Shown: piece after piece, positions 5,539-20,623 of the stretch
Layout of the letters: every line of letters starts with the position of its first letter
Numbering within the stretch: the first letter of the stretch is position 1
Virus record (IMG/VR): IMGVR_UViG_3300048577_000125
Coordinates: 1 to 35,837 of that record
Direction: 5' to 3' (one strand)
Source of the DNA: a virus
Taxonomy: Duplodnaviria > Caudoviricetes
DNA: 35,837 bases
Notes under the pieces: generated by a model
Database searches by the model: none
Seen by the model: the letters and a program-made list of their open reading frames with translations, nothing else
What the model was told of the DNA's origin: nothing
Position numbers and translations under genes: made by a program

Positions 5539-6234
5539 TCATGGGTGAAACACCGCCTGGCTGGGGTCCAGCCAGAAGCCATAGCCCTTGGCGTTGACCG
5601 CCGGACCCAGCATCGCATCCCGCTCCGAAAACCGGCACTGCCGCGCCACCACATCCCGCATCACCTTGCAGCTCCCCGCCGACTCCAGCCGCAGCAGCCC
5701 GCCCGCCGGCAGCGACGCCAGTCCCGGATGATACGGCGCATTCGGCCCGAACCGCTGCCCGTTCGCCCGATAGCCCCACGTGTCGTAAAAAAAGCCGCCC
5801 ATGTGCATCGACAGCGGGCTGACCACATCCACCGCCCTGCTCGTGTCGTTCAGCCGTTGCAGCAGCCGCACCATCGTCAGCGGCTCCCAAATCAGATCCG
5901 CCTCCACATAAATCAGCGCATCGAAGTCGTCCTCCTTGATGCGCTCAAACAGCCGGTTCCACGTCCGCGCAATATTCGCCCAGCGCGTCGGGTCATCGAT
6001 GCTGCCAAAACTTGGCCCGCCGTGGTCCAGCTTATAGATCGCCAGCCCCGGCGTATCCCGCACCGCCTCCACCAGCCGCGCCCACGTGTTGTCCGCCGAG
6101 TCGCCCTCCCCCACGCGCATCACCAGCGAGTCACCTCGCGCCGCCAGCACCTCCCGCAGCCCCGCCGCCTGGCGCAAATACCGCTCCAAATACCCCTCCG
6201 CATTGCGGAGGATGCTCGCCATCGCCACAATCAT
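5539..6234 (-). CDS. Glycosyltransferase, GT-A fold (GT2/Anp1-like)
   Basis: EGDSADNT, YVEADL (DxD-like) and FFYDTWGYR motifs. Confidence 0.75.
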   Translation of the reverse strand: MIVAMASILRNAEGYLERYLRQAAGLREVLAARGDSLVMRVGEGDSADNTWARLVEAVRDTPGLAIYKLDHGGPSFGSIDDPTRWANIARTWNRLFERIKEDDFDALIYVEADLIWEPLTMVRLLQRLNDTSRAVDVVSPLSMHMGGFFYDTWGYRANGQRFGPNAPYHPGLASLPAGGLLRLESAGSCKVMRDVVARQCRFSERDAMLGPAVNAKGYGFWLDPSQAVFHP

Positions 6235-6253
6235 CCGCCCCGCTCCTCTCCCC

Positions 6254-6275
6254 TCACTGTCGTTTCCGACAGTGA
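6254..6275. repeat. 22-bp palindrome P2
   Basis: Exact copy, intergenic between the two GT-A genes. Confidence 0.95.
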
Positions 6276-6281
6276 GCCGTG

Positions 6282-6312
6282 CTGTTGCGATAACCGCTTA
6301 TTACCTGTACAC
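6282..6312 (-). other. dif/Xer-like site C
   Basis: Minus strand GTGTACAGGTAA-TAAGCGG-TTATCGCAACAG, directly after the stop at 6314. Confidence 0.75.
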
Positions 6313-6313
6313 A

Positions 6314-6979
6314 TCAATGCACCACATGCGTCGTCGGGTCGGCCCAAATGCCAAACCCGCGCGCCTTCGCCAGCGCACAGAACCCGCGATCCACATCCTC
6401 GCTGCGATAGCGCACACCCGCGCGCAGCACCGCGATCTTGCTCAACAGCGTGCCGCCCACCGTGTCCATCTCAATCGGCTCGTCGCCAAACGCCGCAGCC
6501 TCCTCACGCCCAAAGTTCGTGAAAAACTGCCCGCCCCGGCTGAAGGCCCAGATGTCATAAAAGAACACGCCGCCTTGCCACGTGAACGGCGCAATGATGT
6601 CCTTGTCCGCTGCGATCAGCCGCTCCAGCAGGGCAGGCTCATAGCGGATGTCCGAGGGCAGGAACAGCACGTAATCCGACCAGCGGCAGTCCACCGCCTC
6701 CAGCCCAGCGTTGAACACCTGCGCCAGAATCTCAAACCGCTCCGCATTGACCACCGACGGATAACGCGGCCGCCCCGTGTCGCAGCGCACCACGTGCACC
6801 CAGCCCGCCGCCGCCTGCCAGCCCAACAGCGCCGCGCGCGTATCGTCCACGCTGTCCCCCTCCACGGCCACCACCACCAGCCGCCCGCCCGGCAGCGTCA
6901 ACCGCTCCACCCGCTCCCTATACGCCGCCACACCAGCCGCACCGGCATCGCGAAACGGGCTGACGATAGTCACGTTCAT
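6314..6979 (-). CDS. Glycosyltransferase, GT-A fold (GT2/Anp1-like)
   Basis: VTIVSPFRD, EGDSVDDT and FFYDIWAF motifs; paralogous to 5539..6234. Confidence 0.78.
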   Translation of the reverse strand: MNVTIVSPFRDAGAAGVAAYRERVERLTLPGGRLVVVAVEGDSVDDTRAALLGWQAAAGWVHVVRCDTGRPRYPSVVNAERFEILAQVFNAGLEAVDCRWSDYVLFLPSDIRYEPALLERLIAADKDIIAPFTWQGGVFFYDIWAFSRGGQFFTNFGREEAAAFGDEPIEMDTVGGTLLSKIAVLRAGVRYRSEDVDRGFCALAKARGFGIWADPTTHVVH

Positions 6980-7704
6980 AGCGCCAGCTCCATCCGTTCC
7001 GCCCGCCGCATCGCCTCATAGGTATCCATGTCGCGCACCTCCCAGCCGTTGTAAGTGGCGCAGGGCAGCGGCGGATAGGTCATCGCCCGCACAAACCGCT
7101 CCACATACTCCCACGGCCACGCTGGGTCAATCGCCCCGCCGTGTGGCGGCCCCGCATGATGGTACTGCGCCTGGCCGACCTGCGCGACCCCTGGAATGTC
7201 GAGAAACGCCAGCTTGATTGCCGCCGGCCAGCACTCGACCACCAGCCGGTTGATCTTATCGAACAGGCTCGCCTGCGTCTCATCCGGCGCAATCTGGCAC
7301 GTGCACTGCAAAATAATCCGCCCCGTGTCGATGCCCTCGTCCACCCAGTGATAGGTAATCCCCGTCACCGCGTCCCCATCCAGGATCGCCCACGGCACCG
7401 AACTGCGCCCCCGATGATTCGGCAGCAGCGCCGCATGGCAGTTGATCACCCGCCCGGCCATCCTTGCGATCACGGGCCGCCGGATGATGTGCAGATAGCC
7501 GATAGAGGCAATCGCTCCTGGTTTGTAAGGCCATTTCCCCAGGTCATTGACCGATTGCGTGCTGTACCAGACACCCAGCTCCCGCGCCGTGCGGATGATG
7601 TCCGCCCCTTCATGCGTGAAGAGCGCCACCTGGTGTTTCTGCTCAGCGCACTGGCGCAGGATCGCCTCGGCGGCTGGCCCCTTGCCGCAGATAAAAAGCA
7701 TCAC
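6976..7704 (-). CDS. Formyltransferase (Fmt/sugar N-formyltransferase family)
   Basis: INCHAALLPNHRGRSSVPWAI...TGITYHWVDEGIDTGRII signature. Confidence 0.9.
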   Translation of the reverse strand: MMLFICGKGPAAEAILRQCAEQKHQVALFTHEGADIIRTARELGVWYSTQSVNDLGKWPYKPGAIASIGYLHIIRRPVIARMAGRVINCHAALLPNHRGRSSVPWAILDGDAVTGITYHWVDEGIDTGRIILQCTCQIAPDETQASLFDKINRLVVECWPAAIKLAFLDIPGVAQVGQAQYHHAGPPHGGAIDPAWPWEYVERFVRAMTYPPLPCATYNGWEVRDMDTYEAMRRAERMELAL

Positions 7705-9005
7705 GCCCGCACCGCCTCGCTCCCGTTAACCGCCGCCGTCGGCTCCACCGCCACCAGCTTCGCCCCCGGCCCCGCCACCAGCGCCGCCATCGCCGCCGGC
7801 TGCGCAGCTCGCACAGGCTGCGCCGGCGTCACCGTGCGCGCCAACTCCGCCATCAGCGGCCCCCACTGCTCCGCCACAATCGCATCCCAACTATATTCCC
7901 CGTGGATGGCCGCCTCCGCCCGCAGCCGCTTTGCCAGCGGCCACGCATCCCCGTTGTCATGCCACTCCGCATACAGCTCATGCAGCGCATCGCGGATGCC
8001 GTCCACATCCGGCCACGCCTGCCACGCATTCAACTGCGTCCACACCATGTCCCGCGGCGCGACCCGATAACCCCAGCGCACCAGCTCCGGCATCGCCGAG
8101 AAGTCGGTCGTCACCACCGGCGCGCCGCACGCCTGCGCCTCAATCAGCGGAATCCCGAATCCTTCCGACATCGCCGCGCCCAGGAACACATCCGCATTGT
8201 TGTAGACCAACGCCAGATACTCCGGCGGCAGCCCCCGAAAATACTGGTAGCGGTCGGGGAAGATGCACTTTTCGCTGATGCCCAGGTTCGCCATCAGCGC
8301 CCCAAAATCAATGCCGCCATACATCGTCGTCGGCTCCGTGTGGATGTACAGCCGCGCCCCCGGCTTATCCTGCGCAAACTGCGCCCACGCCCGCAACTGC
8401 ACCTGGAACGCCTTCCGGTCAGGAAACCCCTTGTTCGCCGCCACCATCACCGTCAGATGCTCCGCCCCAAACAGCACCTCGCGCCGGAACGCCCGCACCT
8501 GCTCCGCCGGCAGCACCCGGTACACACTCGGCTCCACCCCGTGCGGAATATACGTGTTCGCCACGCCCGCCTTCGCCAGCAGCTCATGTCCCCACTTGCT
8601 GTACGTCAGCGGCCTGTGCGCCCCTTGCAGGCTGTCCAGCACCAACTGCGGCACAGGATCATGATCAATCGGCAGCCACGGCAGCCACAGCGCCGGGCTG
8701 ACCTTCTGCGCCGTCTCCTTCATCACCCACACGTCGATCAGCGAGATGACCACGTTCGCCGCAAAATCCTGCGCGTGCGCCCCGATAATGTCATTCCCAT
8801 ACGCGTCAGCCCCCGCTGGATAACAGCGGATGCCCCCCACCTCATGTGTGCCGCCCTGCAACCCATACCAGGCAAACATCGCCACATTCTGCACCCCGCC
8901 CACCTGGGGCAAAGCCGCCAACCGCGGCAGCAGAGACCTGCCCTGCACACCATACCCGCTGTTGGTCCAGAACGCGTTACTCGAATACAACAGCCTGATC
9001 GACAT
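7701..9005 (-). CDS. Glycosyltransferase family 4 (GT-B)
   Basis: SGYG, IPHGVE and EGFGIPLIEAQACGAPVV (EX7E) motifs; likely start ATG 9005. Confidence 0.92.
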   Translation of the reverse strand: MSIRLLYSSNAFWTNSGYGVQGRSLLPRLAALPQVGGVQNVAMFAWYGLQGGTHEVGGIRCYPAGADAYGNDIIGAHAQDFAANVVISLIDVWVMKETAQKVSPALWLPWLPIDHDPVPQLVLDSLQGAHRPLTYSKWGHELLAKAGVANTYIPHGVEPSVYRVLPAEQVRAFRREVLFGAEHLTVMVAANKGFPDRKAFQVQLRAWAQFAQDKPGARLYIHTEPTTMYGGIDFGALMANLGISEKCIFPDRYQYFRGLPPEYLALVYNNADVFLGAAMSEGFGIPLIEAQACGAPVVTTDFSAMPELVRWGYRVAPRDMVWTQLNAWQAWPDVDGIRDALHELYAEWHDNGDAWPLAKRLRAEAAIHGEYSWDAIVAEQWGPLMAELARTVTPAQPVRAAQPAAMAALVAGPGAKLVAVEPTAAVNGSEAVRA

Positions 9006-9021
9006 ATGCTCCTTGCTCCCC

Positions 9022-9318
9022 TTATCCCTTAGTCGCCGGCAGGACGCCCGCATAGGCGCCCATCAGCGAATTGACCGTCCACTGCAAATCGCTGTCCCCG
9101 CTCCCCTTCGTCACCGCCTGGTTGCTCGCCACCCCAAACGCCAGATTGCGCGCAAACTGCTGCGGCTGATTCAGCAGCGCCGCGCAATAATTCGCCAGCC
9201 GCACATCCGTCGCCGGGTCATTCAGCAGCGCAATCGCCGCCGCCACCGCCGCCTGCTGCACCCGCGCCATAAACTCCCCATCCTGCGCCAGCGCCACCTG
9301 CCCCAAAAAATCAGCCAT
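9022..9318 (-). CDS. Hypothetical protein
   Basis: 98-aa ORF coupled to the upstream gene. Confidence 0.6.
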   Translation of the reverse strand: MADFLGQVALAQDGEFMARVQQAAVAAAIALLNDPATDVRLANYCAALLNQPQQFARNLAFGVASNQAVTKGSGDSDLQWTVNSLMGAYAGVLPATKG

Positions 9319-12978: not shown

Positions 12979-13240
12979 CAGGCGTCCCTCCCCGCGTCGC
13001 AATGATAATCGCCCAGGCCCGATCCGCCACGGGGTTGCAAACCTCGCCCGGCAGCCCGTAGCGGCTCACCAGCCGCATATACTGCGTGCGCAGATACTGC
13101 CGCGTCCCCGCCGGCTCCAGCTCCTCCAGCATCCCCGCATAATCGTCCAGCACAGTGGCCGCCAGCGCCTGCGCCACCCGCTCCACATCCACCGTCGCCA
13201 GCCCCAGCCAGCGCAGCAGCAATCGTCGCAGCATGGTCAT
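12941..13240 (-). CDS. Hypothetical protein
   Basis: 99 aa, coupled to the MuF stop. Confidence 0.55.
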   Translation of the reverse strand: MTMLRRLLLRWLGLATVDVERVAQALAATVLDDYAGMLEELEPAGTRQYLRTQYMRLVSRYGLPGEVCNPVADRAWAIIIATRGGTPDAATSDEFAFYD

Positions 13241-14295
13241 CTCCGGTAATACCCCTGCGCCCGTTCGCCCAGCAGCCCCACCAGCGACGCCTCGCGCAGC
13301 ATATCCCCGTATACAGGATCATCATACGCCACCGACAGCTCGCCAAAACGAAACTCCCCCGCCCGCCACGCATCAAACATCCCCGGCCCCATCCTGCGCG
13401 CCTGCTCAGCCAGGGGCAGCCCCGCAAACCAATCCGCCCCCGGCGTCACCTCCGGCAGGCTCAGCCCCAGCCGCTTCGCCAGCGGCACCTCCGGCAGCGC
13501 CGTGCACCGCCCGTTGTGATGGTCGTTCAGCACCTCGTCCACGCCGTGCCGCCCGCCGTGCTGCGCCACGCAGCTCAGGCACACCCGATCATCCAGCTCC
13601 GCATACCACACCCAGCCGGAGACAATATCGCTGTTCGCCATATAATTCGCCCGCGTCGCCTCGCGGTACGCATAAAGCTGCGCCGTCCTGGCCGTCGTCA
13701 GCGCCCAGTTCAGCCCCACCCCCAGCCCCCTGCGCACCATCTCCCTGGCCACCTTGCGCGGGTTATACCCCAGCGCAATCCCATCCACCAGGCTCTCCTC
13801 CAACTGCCGCACCACCGCATCGCTAAATCCTTGCCCTAGCGAGGCGTGCAGCGGCGAGTCCGGCCCCAAGAAGCCGAGCATCGTCTCCACCTGTTCCGCC
13901 GGCAGCATATCAAACCCCGCCCCAATCGCCGCCTGCGTGCGCGGGTTGATAAAGTACGCCTGCACCATGCCCCGGCTGTCCGTAAGCCCCGCCAGAATCT
14001 CCCGCTGCGCCGCCGTGGCCACCTCCGTGTCCGCATAGCTCGCCCAGCGCGCCAGCTCCTCCGTCGTCTGCGCCAGCAGCGAACGCACCGCCCCCAGCCG
14101 CGCCGCCTGGCCCCGGCTCACCTCCTGGTGCGCCCCCTGGATAGCCGTCAGCGCCTGCTCCAGCCCCGCCTGCTGCGCCTCCAGGTTGCGATAAACCCGC
14201 CCATACGCCTGCACCAGCCGCGTAGCAGCCTCCCGCTCCCGCGCCAGCGCCGCCCGCCTGAACCTCTCCGCAGCATCCAAAACAGGGTGAGGCAT
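13237..14295 (-). CDS. Minor head morphogenesis protein (MuF/SPP1 gp7 family)
   Basis: TARTAQLYAYR, WVWYAELDDRVCLSC and HHNGRC motifs. Confidence 0.9.
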   Translation of the reverse strand: MPHPVLDAAERFRRAALAREREAATRLVQAYGRVYRNLEAQQAGLEQALTAIQGAHQEVSRGQAARLGAVRSLLAQTTEELARWASYADTEVATAAQREILAGLTDSRGMVQAYFINPRTQAAIGAGFDMLPAEQVETMLGFLGPDSPLHASLGQGFSDAVVRQLEESLVDGIALGYNPRKVAREMVRRGLGVGLNWALTTARTAQLYAYREATRANYMANSDIVSGWVWYAELDDRVCLSCVAQHGGRHGVDEVLNDHHNGRCTALPEVPLAKRLGLSLPEVTPGADWFAGLPLAEQARRMGPGMFDAWRAGEFRFGELSVAYDDPVYGDMLREASLVGLLGERAQGYYRR

Positions 14296-14591
14296 TAGCC
14301 TACCTGCGAAATGGTATAAGTAATCTGCTCTGGTGGGACTGGAGCCGAGGTCGCATTGATCTGGCCTGTGCTGCCTGTGCTGCCTATGCTAAGCGTGCCC
14401 GTGTTCCCCGTACAGACGAACCACGTACCCCAAGGGGGTAGTGGCGCGGGGTAGTAGATCGGCTGCACAAGTGGCACATACACCTTCTCCCCATTGACTA
14501 ACTCAGCGAGGATGTCGCGCAACTCCTGCGCCTCTTGCTGGGTCAGGGTAATTTCAATGTCCTTGAGCTTGATTACAACCTTGACTTCCAT
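14295..14591 (-). CDS. Hypothetical protein (lower GC, moron-like)
   Basis: 98 aa with GGAGG RBS; atypical composition. Confidence 0.6.
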   Translation of the reverse strand: MEVKVVIKLKDIEITLTQQEAQELRDILAELVNGEKVYVPLVQPIYYPAPLPPWGTWFVCTGNTGTLSIGSTGSTGQINATSAPVPPEQITYTISQVG

Positions 14592-14611
14592 CGTTCATCT
14601 CCTCCGATTAA

Positions 14612-14764
14612 TGGTGCGGCCCCTGAGACTCGAACTCAGGCTACTTCCCTCGGTTCACCGGCCCGTCCGGCTATACCCTTACGCCCTGCGGTGTGGGCAC
14701 CCTAGTCACCAGCGGGGAAGCTTTATAGGTTCACCGTGTATCACATGCCACACGTATTGGCCGC
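14612..14764 (-). ncRNA. tRNA-like structured RNA (acceptor stem, T-arm and CCA with a large internal domain)
   Basis: 5' GCGGCC pairs with 3' GGCCGC-A-CCA; T-arm CTGAG-TTCGAGT-CTCAG; internal CTTCCC/GGGAAG and CGTGT/ACACG stems. Confidence 0.65.
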
Positions 14765-14765
14765 C

Positions 14766-14795
14766 CTGTATAGGTAACAACTGTTATTCCACCTG
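14766..14795 (+). other. dif/Xer-like site F
   Basis: CTGTATAGGTAA-CAACTG-TTATTCCACCTG; its TTA is the stop codon of 14784..15047. Confidence 0.72.
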
Positions 14796-15047
14796 CGTCA
14801 CTGTCGTTTCCGACAGTGAGAAATCATCGCACCATCCCGGCTTCGTATTCGCAACCGCATAGCCAAGGACTTTGAGTAGCGGATACCGCATCCACAGCCC
14901 ATGAATCACGTGGTAGACGAACCAGCCCAACCGCGTTGCCGGGCGCGGAATGTAACCGACGGGCAGCCACGCATCGTGCTCGCCCGCATCATCCGGCGGA
15001 TTCAGCCGCGCCACCTCTGCCGGCGTCAGCGCGTACCAGCCTGTCAC
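14784..15047 (-). CDS. Hypothetical protein
   Basis: 87 aa, start overlaps the portal stop. Confidence 0.55.
   Translation of the reverse strand: MTGWYALTPAEVARLNPPDDAGEHDAWLPVGYIPRPATRLGWFVYHVIHGLWMRYPLLKVLGYAVANTKPGWCDDFSLSETTVTQVE
14798..14819. repeat. 22-bp palindrome P4
   Basis: Exact copy, 2 bp from site F, in the last codons of 14784..15047. Confidence 0.95.
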
Positions 15048-16390
15048 GGCTGACCACCCCGCTCAAAACTCCGCAGCAGCTCCTCGCCCAGCGTCGTCCG
15101 GCTCGCCTGCTCCGTCTGGATGCGCCCCAGCTCGCGCGCCGGGTCATACCCCCGCTGCTCCAGATACGTCTCCAGGCTCAACCCCTGCTGCCGATCCAGG
15201 CTCAACCCCTGCACGCGCGCCCCCTCATCCACCGGCAGCGGATCGCCCCAGCGGTTGCGCACCATGACGCCCTGGCCAAAGCCGCCCATCTCGACAATCG
15301 CTCCATTGATGGCTGACAGCATCTCGCCATACGTGTTGCGCTTGACGTTCGTCAGCTCCAGCAGATCGCCATACAGAATGCGCAGCGCAAACCCGCTTAG
15401 CTGCCCCACATTCACCCGATCCGGGTCCAGGTCCGGCACCCCCGTAATCTTCGAGTACGCCTCCCGCAGCCCGGCCCAAAACTGGTATGCGCTCACCAGG
15501 TCACTCTGCATTTCCAGGTTGAACACCCTGGCGTCCGGCTTCGGAATGCTCCAGAACTGATCCACCGCCGTGTTCTGCAACTCCGGCGCCGAGAATCCCG
15601 TGCCGATGGTGCGCGGGTGCGCGTGGTAGCGCAGGATGCGGCTGATGTTGCTCGCCGTGAAATTGATGGCGTCGTTGATGTCCGCCTCCTCCAAGTCCGA
15701 GATGCCCCACACGCCGATAGGATTCGGCCTGTTCTGGCACCAGAAGACCGGCGCCCACGTGTACGGCCACGGCACTTCATTCATCGTCCGCCAGCCCGCC
15801 CCGCCCCGCTCACTCACCTCCTCCGTCGTCAGCCATTCCCCGTTCTCCTGTAGGTCGATGCGATGCCGGCGCCAGTCCTCACCAGAACGCCAGACGATTC
15901 GATAGGACACCACCAGGTCTATATCATCCTGGTGAGTAATAATCTCCATCAGCGAGGAGTTCAGCGCCACAATCCTGGGCAGCTCCCCCGTCCGCTCCGG
16001 CGCATAAAGCCGCACGAATGCCATTCCCGTGACACTGCCATTCAGCCCAATCTCCTGGAGCAGCATGGCACGCTCTTCGTCCGTCCCGCCCCACGCCGCG
16101 CGCAGGTATGCCTCCGCGGCCTCGTTCTCCTCATCTTCGATCTCAAACGCCGGCGCCGCCTGGCCCCCAAACAGGAACGCCAGGCTCTTGTCCACCACGC
16201 GCCGCGAATAGTTCACGATCACATTATCGTTCGCCCCATCCGCCCGCGTCTTCAACTGCCGCCTGTGCTTGCCCCGGTAATAATTCCAGAACAGCCCAAA
16301 CAACTCCTGCCGCTGCCGATGCTCCGCCGAGAGCGGGCTGAACCCGCTCGCCCCGCCGCCCTGCCCGTTCAAAAAGTCCCAGATCGCCAT
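15044..16390 (-). CDS. Portal protein (SPP1-like)
   Basis: NYYRGKH, VIVNYSRRVVDKSLAFLFG and LSGFALR motifs; follows terL. Confidence 0.92.
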   Translation of the reverse strand: MAIWDFLNGQGGGASGFSPLSAEHRQRQELFGLFWNYYRGKHRRQLKTRADGANDNVIVNYSRRVVDKSLAFLFGGQAAPAFEIEDEENEAAEAYLRAAWGGTDEERAMLLQEIGLNGSVTGMAFVRLYAPERTGELPRIVALNSSLMEIITHQDDIDLVVSYRIVWRSGEDWRRHRIDLQENGEWLTTEEVSERGGAGWRTMNEVPWPYTWAPVFWCQNRPNPIGVWGISDLEEADINDAINFTASNISRILRYHAHPRTIGTGFSAPELQNTAVDQFWSIPKPDARVFNLEMQSDLVSAYQFWAGLREAYSKITGVPDLDPDRVNVGQLSGFALRILYGDLLELTNVKRNTYGEMLSAINGAIVEMGGFGQGVMVRNRWGDPLPVDEGARVQGLSLDRQQGLSLETYLEQRGYDPARELGRIQTEQASRTTLGEELLRSFERGGQP

Positions 16391-19478: not shown

Positions 19479-20408
19479 CTACCCCAGCCGCCAGTTATCC
19501 ACCGGCGAGGCCCGCCTGTGCGCCTCCGCAATATCCGTCTGCGCCAGCGCCAGATAGCGCCGCACCATCTCCATCGTGCTGTGGCCCAGCAGCCGTTGCA
19601 GCGTGTACACGTCCCCGCCGTTGCGCAGATAATTGATCGCAAACGTGTGGCGCAGCCGATGCGGTGTCACCGGCTCCACAATCTCCGCCCGCTGGCCGGC
19701 AGCCAGCAGCAGCTTGCGCAGCGCGTTGCGGTCCATCGCAGAGTGTTTCGTCGTCTCAAACAGCGGATCGTCAGGCCGCGTGTCCTTGCGCTTTGCGAGG
19801 TAGCGCCACAGAGACTCACGCGCCAGGTTCCCCAGGTAGACCGTCCTCCCCTTATCGCCCTTGCCGCGCCGCACCTGCGCCGCCCCCGTCTTCATATCCA
19901 CATCGCCGAGCAGCAGGTCGCACAACTCCGCCGCCCGGATGCCCGTATCCAGCAACGCGAGGATGATAGCCCGATCCCGCACGCGTGTGCTGCGCAGCGT
20001 CGTCGGCCCGCTGCGCTTCCCCTCCCATTCCGCAGTCCGCTCGCACGCCAGCAGCAGCCCGCGCAAGTCCTGCTTGCTCAGCGGAATAATCTCCCGGCTG
20101 GCGGCCGCCGGCATCTTGACCCTGTAGCGCCGGATCACATGCTCCACGCCCATCTCCCCCTCCAGCCACGTGAAGAAGGCACTTAACCCGATCCATGCAT
20201 TCTTGACCGTCTTCGGGCTCAGCTTCTCTTCAATGCGCAGATGGTACAGGAATCTGCGCACGTGGTCGGCTGCCAGATCGCCCGTGTCCACATCGCCAAT
20301 CAGCCGCACCCACTTATGCAGCGTGTTGGCATACTCGCGCATCGTGTTGATCGAGCCTGCTCCGGCCCGGAACAACAAAAACCCCTCAATCGCCAGACTG
20401 AGACGCAT
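19479..20408 (-). CDS. int: Tyrosine integrase (XerC/D-like)
   Basis: DTGIRAAEL, GKGDKGR, HRLRHTFA and LLGHSTMEMVRRY motifs; adjacent to attP. Confidence 0.95.
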   Translation of the reverse strand: MRLSLAIEGFLLFRAGAGSINTMREYANTLHKWVRLIGDVDTGDLAADHVRRFLYHLRIEEKLSPKTVKNAWIGLSAFFTWLEGEMGVEHVIRRYRVKMPAAASREIIPLSKQDLRGLLLACERTAEWEGKRSGPTTLRSTRVRDRAIILALLDTGIRAAELCDLLLGDVDMKTGAAQVRRGKGDKGRTVYLGNLARESLWRYLAKRKDTRPDDPLFETTKHSAMDRNALRKLLLAAGQRAEIVEPVTPHRLRHTFAINYLRNGGDVYTLQRLLGHSTMEMVRRYLALAQTDIAEAHRRASPVDNWRLG

Positions 20409-20562: not shown

Positions 20563-20579
20563 GAACAACAAAACTATAG

Positions 20580-20623
20580 TGGGCGAGGAGGGACTTGAAC
20601 CCGCGACCTCACGGATGTGAACC
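20580..20623 (-). other. attP: attP core: 3' half of tRNA-Val(CAC)
   Basis: GG-TTCACAT-CCGTG-AGGTC-GCGGGTTCAAGTCCCTC-CTCGCCCA gives anticodon loop, T-arm and acceptor 3' strand; no 5' half; next to int. Confidence 0.85.

Follow-up and report, generated by a model that had tools for sequence, protein, structure and literature searches.

A candidate tRNA-mimic RNA gene in a replaceable cassette between the portal and MuF-like genes of a temperate phage

The closest described counterpart of the element presented here is the species 1 RNA of phage T4 (RNA C, rnaC; NC_000866.4, 70908-71046), a phage-encoded RNA of about 140-150 nt that was confirmed by Northern blot to be expressed late, as stated in a passage of one of two papers (PMC3014915, PMC9697503); passages of these same papers describe the role of the T4 tRNA-like stable RNAs C and D as unknown. 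A tRNA-like portion is also found in YrlA (RF02553), a tRNA-mimic non-coding RNA that adjoins Ro60 and carries a GNCGAA motif. According to PMC4201824, one RNA of this group is a substrate of RNase P and acquires a CCA, and in the M. smegmatis YrlA the acceptor stem is internal and the ends are made by cleavage. Allo-tRNAs have 12-bp acceptor/T branches divided 8/4 or 9/3 and nonetheless decode, as portions of PMC5389517 report. In tmRNA (RF00023), a tRNA top half with an encoded CCA closes a long internal domain. The alanine identity mark of tmRNA is a G3·U70 pair.

The element lies in a virus record of 35.8 kb with direct terminal repeats, of which all 35,837 nt (the window) were analyzed. 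It occupies 153 nt of the minus strand, from 14764 to 14612, a delineation that draws on sequence, predicted fold and chance tests. At its 5' end, the acceptor strand GCGGCC (nt 1-6; 14759-14764) pairs with GGCCGC at the 3' end, every one of the 6 pairs having a probability of 1.0, and the 3' strand is followed by a discriminator A and an encoded CCA (14612-14621). The T arm (nt 125-143; 14622-14640) consists of a 6-bp stem, CCTGAG/CTCAGG, with pair probabilities of 0.99-1.0, and a TTCGAGT loop. Watson-Crick pairing at probabilities of 0.99-1.0 thus extends over all 12 pairs of the acceptor/T stack, alongside an intact T loop, A73 and CCA. A first-pass annotation made from the letters alone had noticed the tRNA-type 3' end and the matching upstream GCGGCC, which the sequence and the pair probabilities of 0.99-1.0 bear out and to which the minus strand can now be added. 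Its division of the 3' end into CTCAG and GGGCCGC needs correction: A and G are mismatched at position 7:66, and the 12-bp stack is split 6+6, not cleanly 7/5. The acceptor identity positions are G1-C72, C2-G71, G3-C70 and A73; among fetched tRNAs that start with GCGG, a set biased by the search pattern, Leu was commonest (18 of 39).

Overall, a four-way junction is predicted, comprising the acceptor, a hairpin, a linker, a long arm and the T arm. The hairpin in the D-arm position (nt 11-30; 14735-14754) has 5-6 bp with pair probabilities of 0.88-0.98, and the GG in its loop lies away from the canonical D-loop place, which makes a true tRNA elbow doubtful. It is followed by an unpaired linker of 13 nt (nt 31-43; 14722-14734) whose 3' end, CUAUAAA, resembles a 7-nt anticodon loop (AUA) without a stable stem; an alternative fold that gives CUAUAAA a stem, evaluated with the long arm left out, reached -24 kcal/mol vs. 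-62 kcal/mol for the minimum free energy fold. In the modeled structure, CUAUAAA could form a pseudoknot with nt 90-94. The long arm (79 nt; 14643-14721) is closed by a 7-bp helix, GCTTCCC/GGGAAGT (nt 44-50/116-122), with probabilities of 0.94-0.99; its 65-nt interior is loosely defined, with pair probabilities of at most 0.8, and two unpaired bases separate the arm from the T stem. Of the inner stems proposed at first pass, CGTGT/ACACG (0.88-0.98) and GCTTCCC/GGGAAGT (0.94-0.99) are retained and GCCC/GGGC (0.19) is not. The earlier idea of a tRNA mimic that lacks an anticodon arm fits this predicted anatomy, and no Rfam or ARAGORN match contradicts it. An exact match to the 3' 111 nt of the element was found in a single DNA run (a contig of run X11 matching 14572-14722), possibly the sample from which the record derives.

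T4 RNA C and the element share a similar length, acceptor-like ends, a T arm with a TTCGA loop, two internal arms, and an unpaired A-rich linker in place of the anticodon arm, so that the element has the architecture of RNA C, in which a tRNA top half is combined with two inner arms and the anticodon arm is missing. The arm order is reversed, the short arm coming first in the element and the long arm first in RNA C. Unlike RNA C, the element has a perfect 6-bp acceptor and an encoded CCA, and whereas RNA C lies within a tRNA cluster and is conserved (751 records match), the element stands alone in a head operon and no relative of it was found. RNA C shows covariation at 12 of 46 pairs among five homologues and, like the element, has no Rfam match; a covariance model of these five homologues, which is shallow, recognized only the T hairpin in the element (6.6 bits, E 6.8). 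Judged by sequence, the element therefore appears to be built like RNA C, yet membership of the same family is not shown by the covariance model. A prior description of this RNA was not found in the literature, in a search that covered mainly open-access papers later than the original 1970s T4 work. At this locus an RNA C-like design would occur by itself, away from any tRNA cluster, in a small temperate phage whose host belongs to an unrelated phylum (likely Chloroflexota).

The phage is temperate and encodes two tyrosine recombinases along with minus-strand terminase, portal, MuF, scaffold and capsid genes. Twenty-two of 34 genome loci with portal relatives are titled Chloroflexota, and a 47-48-nt stretch at 20577-20623 (minus strand) matches the 3' half of Chloroflexota tRNA-Val(CAC) with up to 98% identity; together these make Chloroflexota the likely host group on sequence grounds. 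The same stretch adjoins an integrase gene (19479-20408) and is the likely attP. The element itself was considered as attP and rejected, since this separate tRNA-Val half exists and no host tRNA half matches the element (none in 401 genomes, nor in a set of 400 genomes); the suggestion that the element might be an att remnant is weakened accordingly. Elsewhere among the head and tail genes, at 5539-9053 (minus strand), translations inspected by eye include open reading frames that read like glycosyltransferases and a formyltransferase.

As first noted, the element lies between the portal gene upstream (15044-16390, minus strand; PHROG 64) and a MuF-like head morphogenesis gene downstream (13237-14295, minus strand; PF04233 and PHROGs). 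Between them is also ORF98 (14295-14591, minus strand), which encodes a 98-aa protein of an unnamed small-protein family and whose Shine-Dalgarno sequence, GGAGGAG, is 6 nt behind the CCA of the element. ORF98 has 46 relatives at E<=0.001; it has no PHROG or Pfam family, its profile matched 0 of 400 genomes, and tblastn against phages gave 0 matches. No sigma-70 promoter or terminator was detected in 14200-15200. An 87-aa open reading frame at 14784-15047 (minus strand), between the portal gene and the nearby dif-like site, is apparently missing from a relative in run X9 and could thus represent another small insertion.

A phage in two runs of one study (X1 and X2) is 95-98% identical to this one on both flanks of the cassette, and in its contigs position 14297 is joined to 14765 via 210 other letters. 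Since 14298-14764 (minus strand) is replaced as a whole, the RNA and ORF98 are swapped as one 467-bp unit. Runs that had been guessed to be RNA proved to be contigs of a relative with the other cassette and are silent on expression. In another study, a contig of run X9 keeps only 14765-14826 and carries other DNA on the RNA side; on the far side of the kept 62 nt we read a portal-end-like sequence from the loose end of that contig. A further loose end, at 14672 in run X5, was not reproduced. In both contigs the match breaks off at the element's first base; the end of the conserved dif-like site coincides with this point, so the break could reflect the site rather than the RNA gene. GC content is 57% in the cassette vs. 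65% for the genome, and ORF98 has a GC3 of 0.67 vs. 0.83-0.86 in the head genes, pointing to foreign cargo. Because a close relative carries other DNA, the element is accessory cargo and not part of the packaging apparatus. The slot thus provides natural pairs of near-identical phages with and without the RNA, which make its role testable.

Among 114 related portal loci, MuF was also visible in 86; the gap between the two genes was at most 100 nt in 41 of these 86 and exceeded 300 nt in 27. The portal-MuF junction is therefore an insertion spot for accessory cargo. RNAs of tRNA type were present in 2 of 45 gaps longer than 100 nt: a tRNA-Pro (L217) and an 86-nt element resembling the end of a tmRNA (L209). 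A T-arm-like match in the gap of L129 was set aside as it has no acceptor. The L209 element (8194-8279, plus strand), which sits between portal and MuF in a prophage of Anaerolineales, resembles the tRNA-like domain of tmRNA alone, with G3·U70 and a T arm and no tag region, and occurs as a single copy in G004.

The 62 nt kept in the X9 contig contain two repeats. The first is a 28-bp site of 11+6+11 layout (14767-14794, minus strand), one of seven strict copies in the phage (1802, 12545, 14767, 17603, 27126, 28074 and 33708); they have a TAA-N6-TTA core, conserved arms, and spacers that differ between copies. Three looser copies with a 7-nt spacer are near 6301, 9725 and 35581, and strict and looser sites together lie mostly at gene borders. 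These sites presumably resemble Xer/dif sites, and from their sequence they could be recombination sites or operators. The copy next to the element, at 14794-14767, is most likely what the first-pass annotation called site F and placed 1 bp from the RNA's 5' end: two Gs lie between, or a single one when the G found behind each of the seven strict sites is counted. The second repeat is a perfect 20-nt hairpin with a GAAA cap (14799-14818, minus strand), one of eight identical copies (1840, 6255, 9748, 14799, 19456, 20831, 25538 and 32097) where 0 are expected by chance; several copies stand directly behind genes, and no exact copy was found in viral contigs or 201 genomes.

Relatives of the element were sought in phage, plasmid, viral-contig, metagenome and genome collections, and none of full length was found. 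ARAGORN gave no call across the window, its relaxed mode gave noise only, and Rfam yielded nothing at gathering scores and nothing at E<=10 over 14300-15100. With blastn, 32 records of cultured phages matched, the 20 listed covering the T-arm end only; there were no matches among plasmids and 10 short interior matches only in 401 genomes. One DNA-pattern scan of viral contigs returned at least 109 loci, among which nhmmer found no relative; a second pattern returned 0 loci, a further scan of 72 loci contained no relative, and a scan limited to 4 of the collection's 64 parts gave 118 loci with 0 descriptor matches. In metagenomes, none of 27 pattern loci ran on into a T arm. Over 570 loci from these scans and searches taken together, nhmmer reached a best E of 0.16. 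R1, a single-sequence covariance model for which a positive control was run, was applied to overlapping samples of Chloroflexota genomes and matched 0/150, 0/3, 1/37, 0/1, 1/39, 1/66 (a repeat of an earlier match), 0/37 and 0/150; its two weak genome matches lack both T loop and CCA. When R1 was run on the window together with 99 selected loci, the element itself was the sole clear match. The element is an orphan without a relative in the collections scanned, and to judge from sequence it is at present a single one; the closest portal relatives of the phage, at 67-88% identity, lie mostly outside the searched DNA, and relatives may well exist despite the empty result. A likeness to Anaerolineales tRNA-Tyr fell below shuffle level and was discarded, and a search for antisense targets within the phage gave one 12-nt match at most.

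We tentatively favor the reading of an accessory gene for a tRNA-mimic RNA, likely non-decoding, that would be excised from the late head transcript by the tRNA-processing enzymes of the host and likely serves as a stable look-alike toward host proteins that bind or cut tRNAs. Transcription would occur by read-through from the terminase-portal operon, as suggested by the lack of a nearby sigma-70 promoter. Bacterial RNase P recognizes a 12-bp acceptor/T stack and RCCA, and by these rules it would be expected to cut at base 1, with 3' trimming to the encoded CCA. The tRNA top half would then protect and present the 79-nt long arm. Benefit in some hosts only, as a decoy or competitor, is the weakest step of the scheme and a guess; such host dependence would fit an element that is dispensable and swappable. 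The reading of a non-decoding mimic is consistent with the intact acceptor, T arm and CCA, the absence of a usable anticodon arm, the head-gene strand and the replaceable cassette, and it gains from the rarity of the acceptor/T-arm/CCA arrangement by chance, the break at the first base of the acceptor, the lowered GC and GC3 values, the insertion-prone portal-MuF junction, the precedent of T4 RNA C and the recurrence of odd-length acceptor/T-arm elements in phages. Against it stand the lack of a homologue, the ordinary energy of the interior, the unusual GG placement in the D-position loop, the 7:66 mismatch, the coincidence of the break with the end of the dif-like site, the missing promoter and the lack of a decoy precedent. 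Phage tRNAs are described in connection with defence, in the portions of PMC10264068 and PMC12445682 consulted, as nuclease-resistant decoding tRNAs that rescue and not as decoys, and no report of a decoy role for a non-decoding phage RNA of this kind was found in a mainly open-access literature. If such mimics do act as decoys, they would constitute an RNA form of counter-defence that is overlooked by tRNA finders and Rfam. A bolder extension, which we consider rather doubtful, is that the 6/6 tRNA top half is a natural scaffold displaying the 79-nt arm and an unstemmed, tyrosine-type CUAUAAA loop as bait for tRNA-cutting defences, with cassettes traded at dif-like sites.

The element may instead be a non-functional relic, a piece of the tRNA region of another phage (an aberrant tRNA gene with a small open reading frame) that was recently captured into a variable slot and is under no selection here. 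Its orphan status in every search, its replacement in a 95-98% identical phage, the lower GC content, the 7:66 mismatch and the ordinary interior energy would all be explained. On the other side, none of the 12 pairs of the stack is lost, the 7-bp helix that closes the long arm is intact, attP is elsewhere, and the interior bears no likeness to the body of a tRNA in decay: against 156 fetched tRNAs, nt 1-124 reached a best score of 32.5 vs. 36.0 +/- 3.0 for shuffles. We regard this explanation as unlikely, though by no means negligible.

It is also rather improbable, in our estimation, that the element acts only in cis, as a processing or stability signal that attracts RNase P and 3' nucleases so that the late mRNA is split between portal and MuF, or that gives the ORF98-MuF message a structured 5' cap, the released RNA being inert. 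Such a signal would suit a position on the coding strand inside a polycistronic head operon, with a strong Shine-Dalgarno sequence 6 nt behind the CCA, an energetically ordinary interior, and a perfect hairpin that ends 34 nt upstream and could protect the upstream 3' end. However, about 45-70 nt would suffice for this purpose, as in short phage forms (L380, L375, L386 and L410, see below), not 153; the hairpin occurs in eight copies and is kept in relatives that have no such RNA; and close relatives live without the element.

The proposals of a shortened tmRNA, a Y-RNA-like RNA or a packaging-associated RNA are largely refuted and taken together very unlikely, and Rfam gives no match over the region. 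The topology, with a long internal domain closed off by a tRNA top half, resembles tmRNA, but the element has G3-C70 in place of the alanine mark, the RF00023 model spans 374 positions vs. 153 nt and gives no score at the element, and neither a covariance match at E<=10 nor a tag frame was found over the region (ARAGORN 0). The features that accompany YrlA are absent: there is no TROVE/Ro60 gene in the phage, although the host could supply one, and no GNCGAA motif within 14612-14764. A packaging role would draw on the position between portal and MuF. Packaging RNA of the phi29 type (pRNA) is essential, whereas the 95-98% identical phage carries different DNA at this place and 41 of 86 related portal-MuF junctions are at most 100 nt long.

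Compared with a canonical tRNA (RF00005), the element has the T arm with a TTCRA loop, the discriminator and the CCA, whereas the 7-bp acceptor (here 6 bp with A·G at 7:66) and the 5-bp anticodon stem with its 7-nt loop are lacking, and neither ARAGORN nor Rfam makes a call. Allo-tRNAs share a 12-bp branch other than 7/5 with the element but keep an anticodon arm, while the 6/6 branch here comes without a usable one. An interrupted tRNA, from whose anticodon loop an insert of about 60 nt would be removed to leave a decoding tRNA, had been among the first suggestions. From the 3' side, the spacing is that of a class I tRNA: one strand of a 5-bp stem, 4-5 nt of variable sequence and then the T stem. 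However, the loop would start C-G with no U33 where it is expected, the region from acceptor to stem is 37 nt vs. about 19, no Rfam intron or tRNA match appears up to E<=10, and since nt 1-124 score no better than shuffles against tRNAs, the interior resembles neither a decayed nor an interrupted tRNA; the suggestion is hardly tenable. Equally implausible is a chance arrangement within non-coding DNA: the folding energy of the whole element is unexceptional (z -1.5 on the minus strand, 0.0 on the plus strand) and that of the interior ordinary (z -0.33), but when the window was dinucleotide-shuffled 300 times, a descriptor of T arm, CCA and matching 5' strand found a match in 1 of the 600 resulting strands, and blastn aligns the T-arm end with genuine ends of phage tRNAs. 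Four-way cloverleaf geometry, by criteria set after the fold was seen, arose in 8 of 1000 interior-only shuffles.

Elements of odd length with an acceptor and T arm recur in phages. When viral contigs were scanned for this acceptor end, 58 loci emerged, none homologous to the element; of the 51 distinct ones, 33 are ARAGORN tRNAs, 13 lack a matching 5' strand, and 5 are ARAGORN-negative, 66-143 nt long, with a pairing acceptor. None of these five can be aligned to the present element. A 114-nt element with acceptor, T arm and CCA in L402 (311-424, plus strand), with a near copy in L416, has no Rfam match and contains a pyrimidine stretch with an anti-Shine-Dalgarno-like ACCUCCUU. GCGG-type acceptors with a T arm and CCA are likewise found in ARAGORN-negative phage elements of 122 nt (L383), 68 nt (L386), 66 nt (L410) and about 45 nt (L380 and L375), as well as in one of 143 nt (L393) whose layout, a long arm followed by a hairpin, is like that of T4 RNA C.
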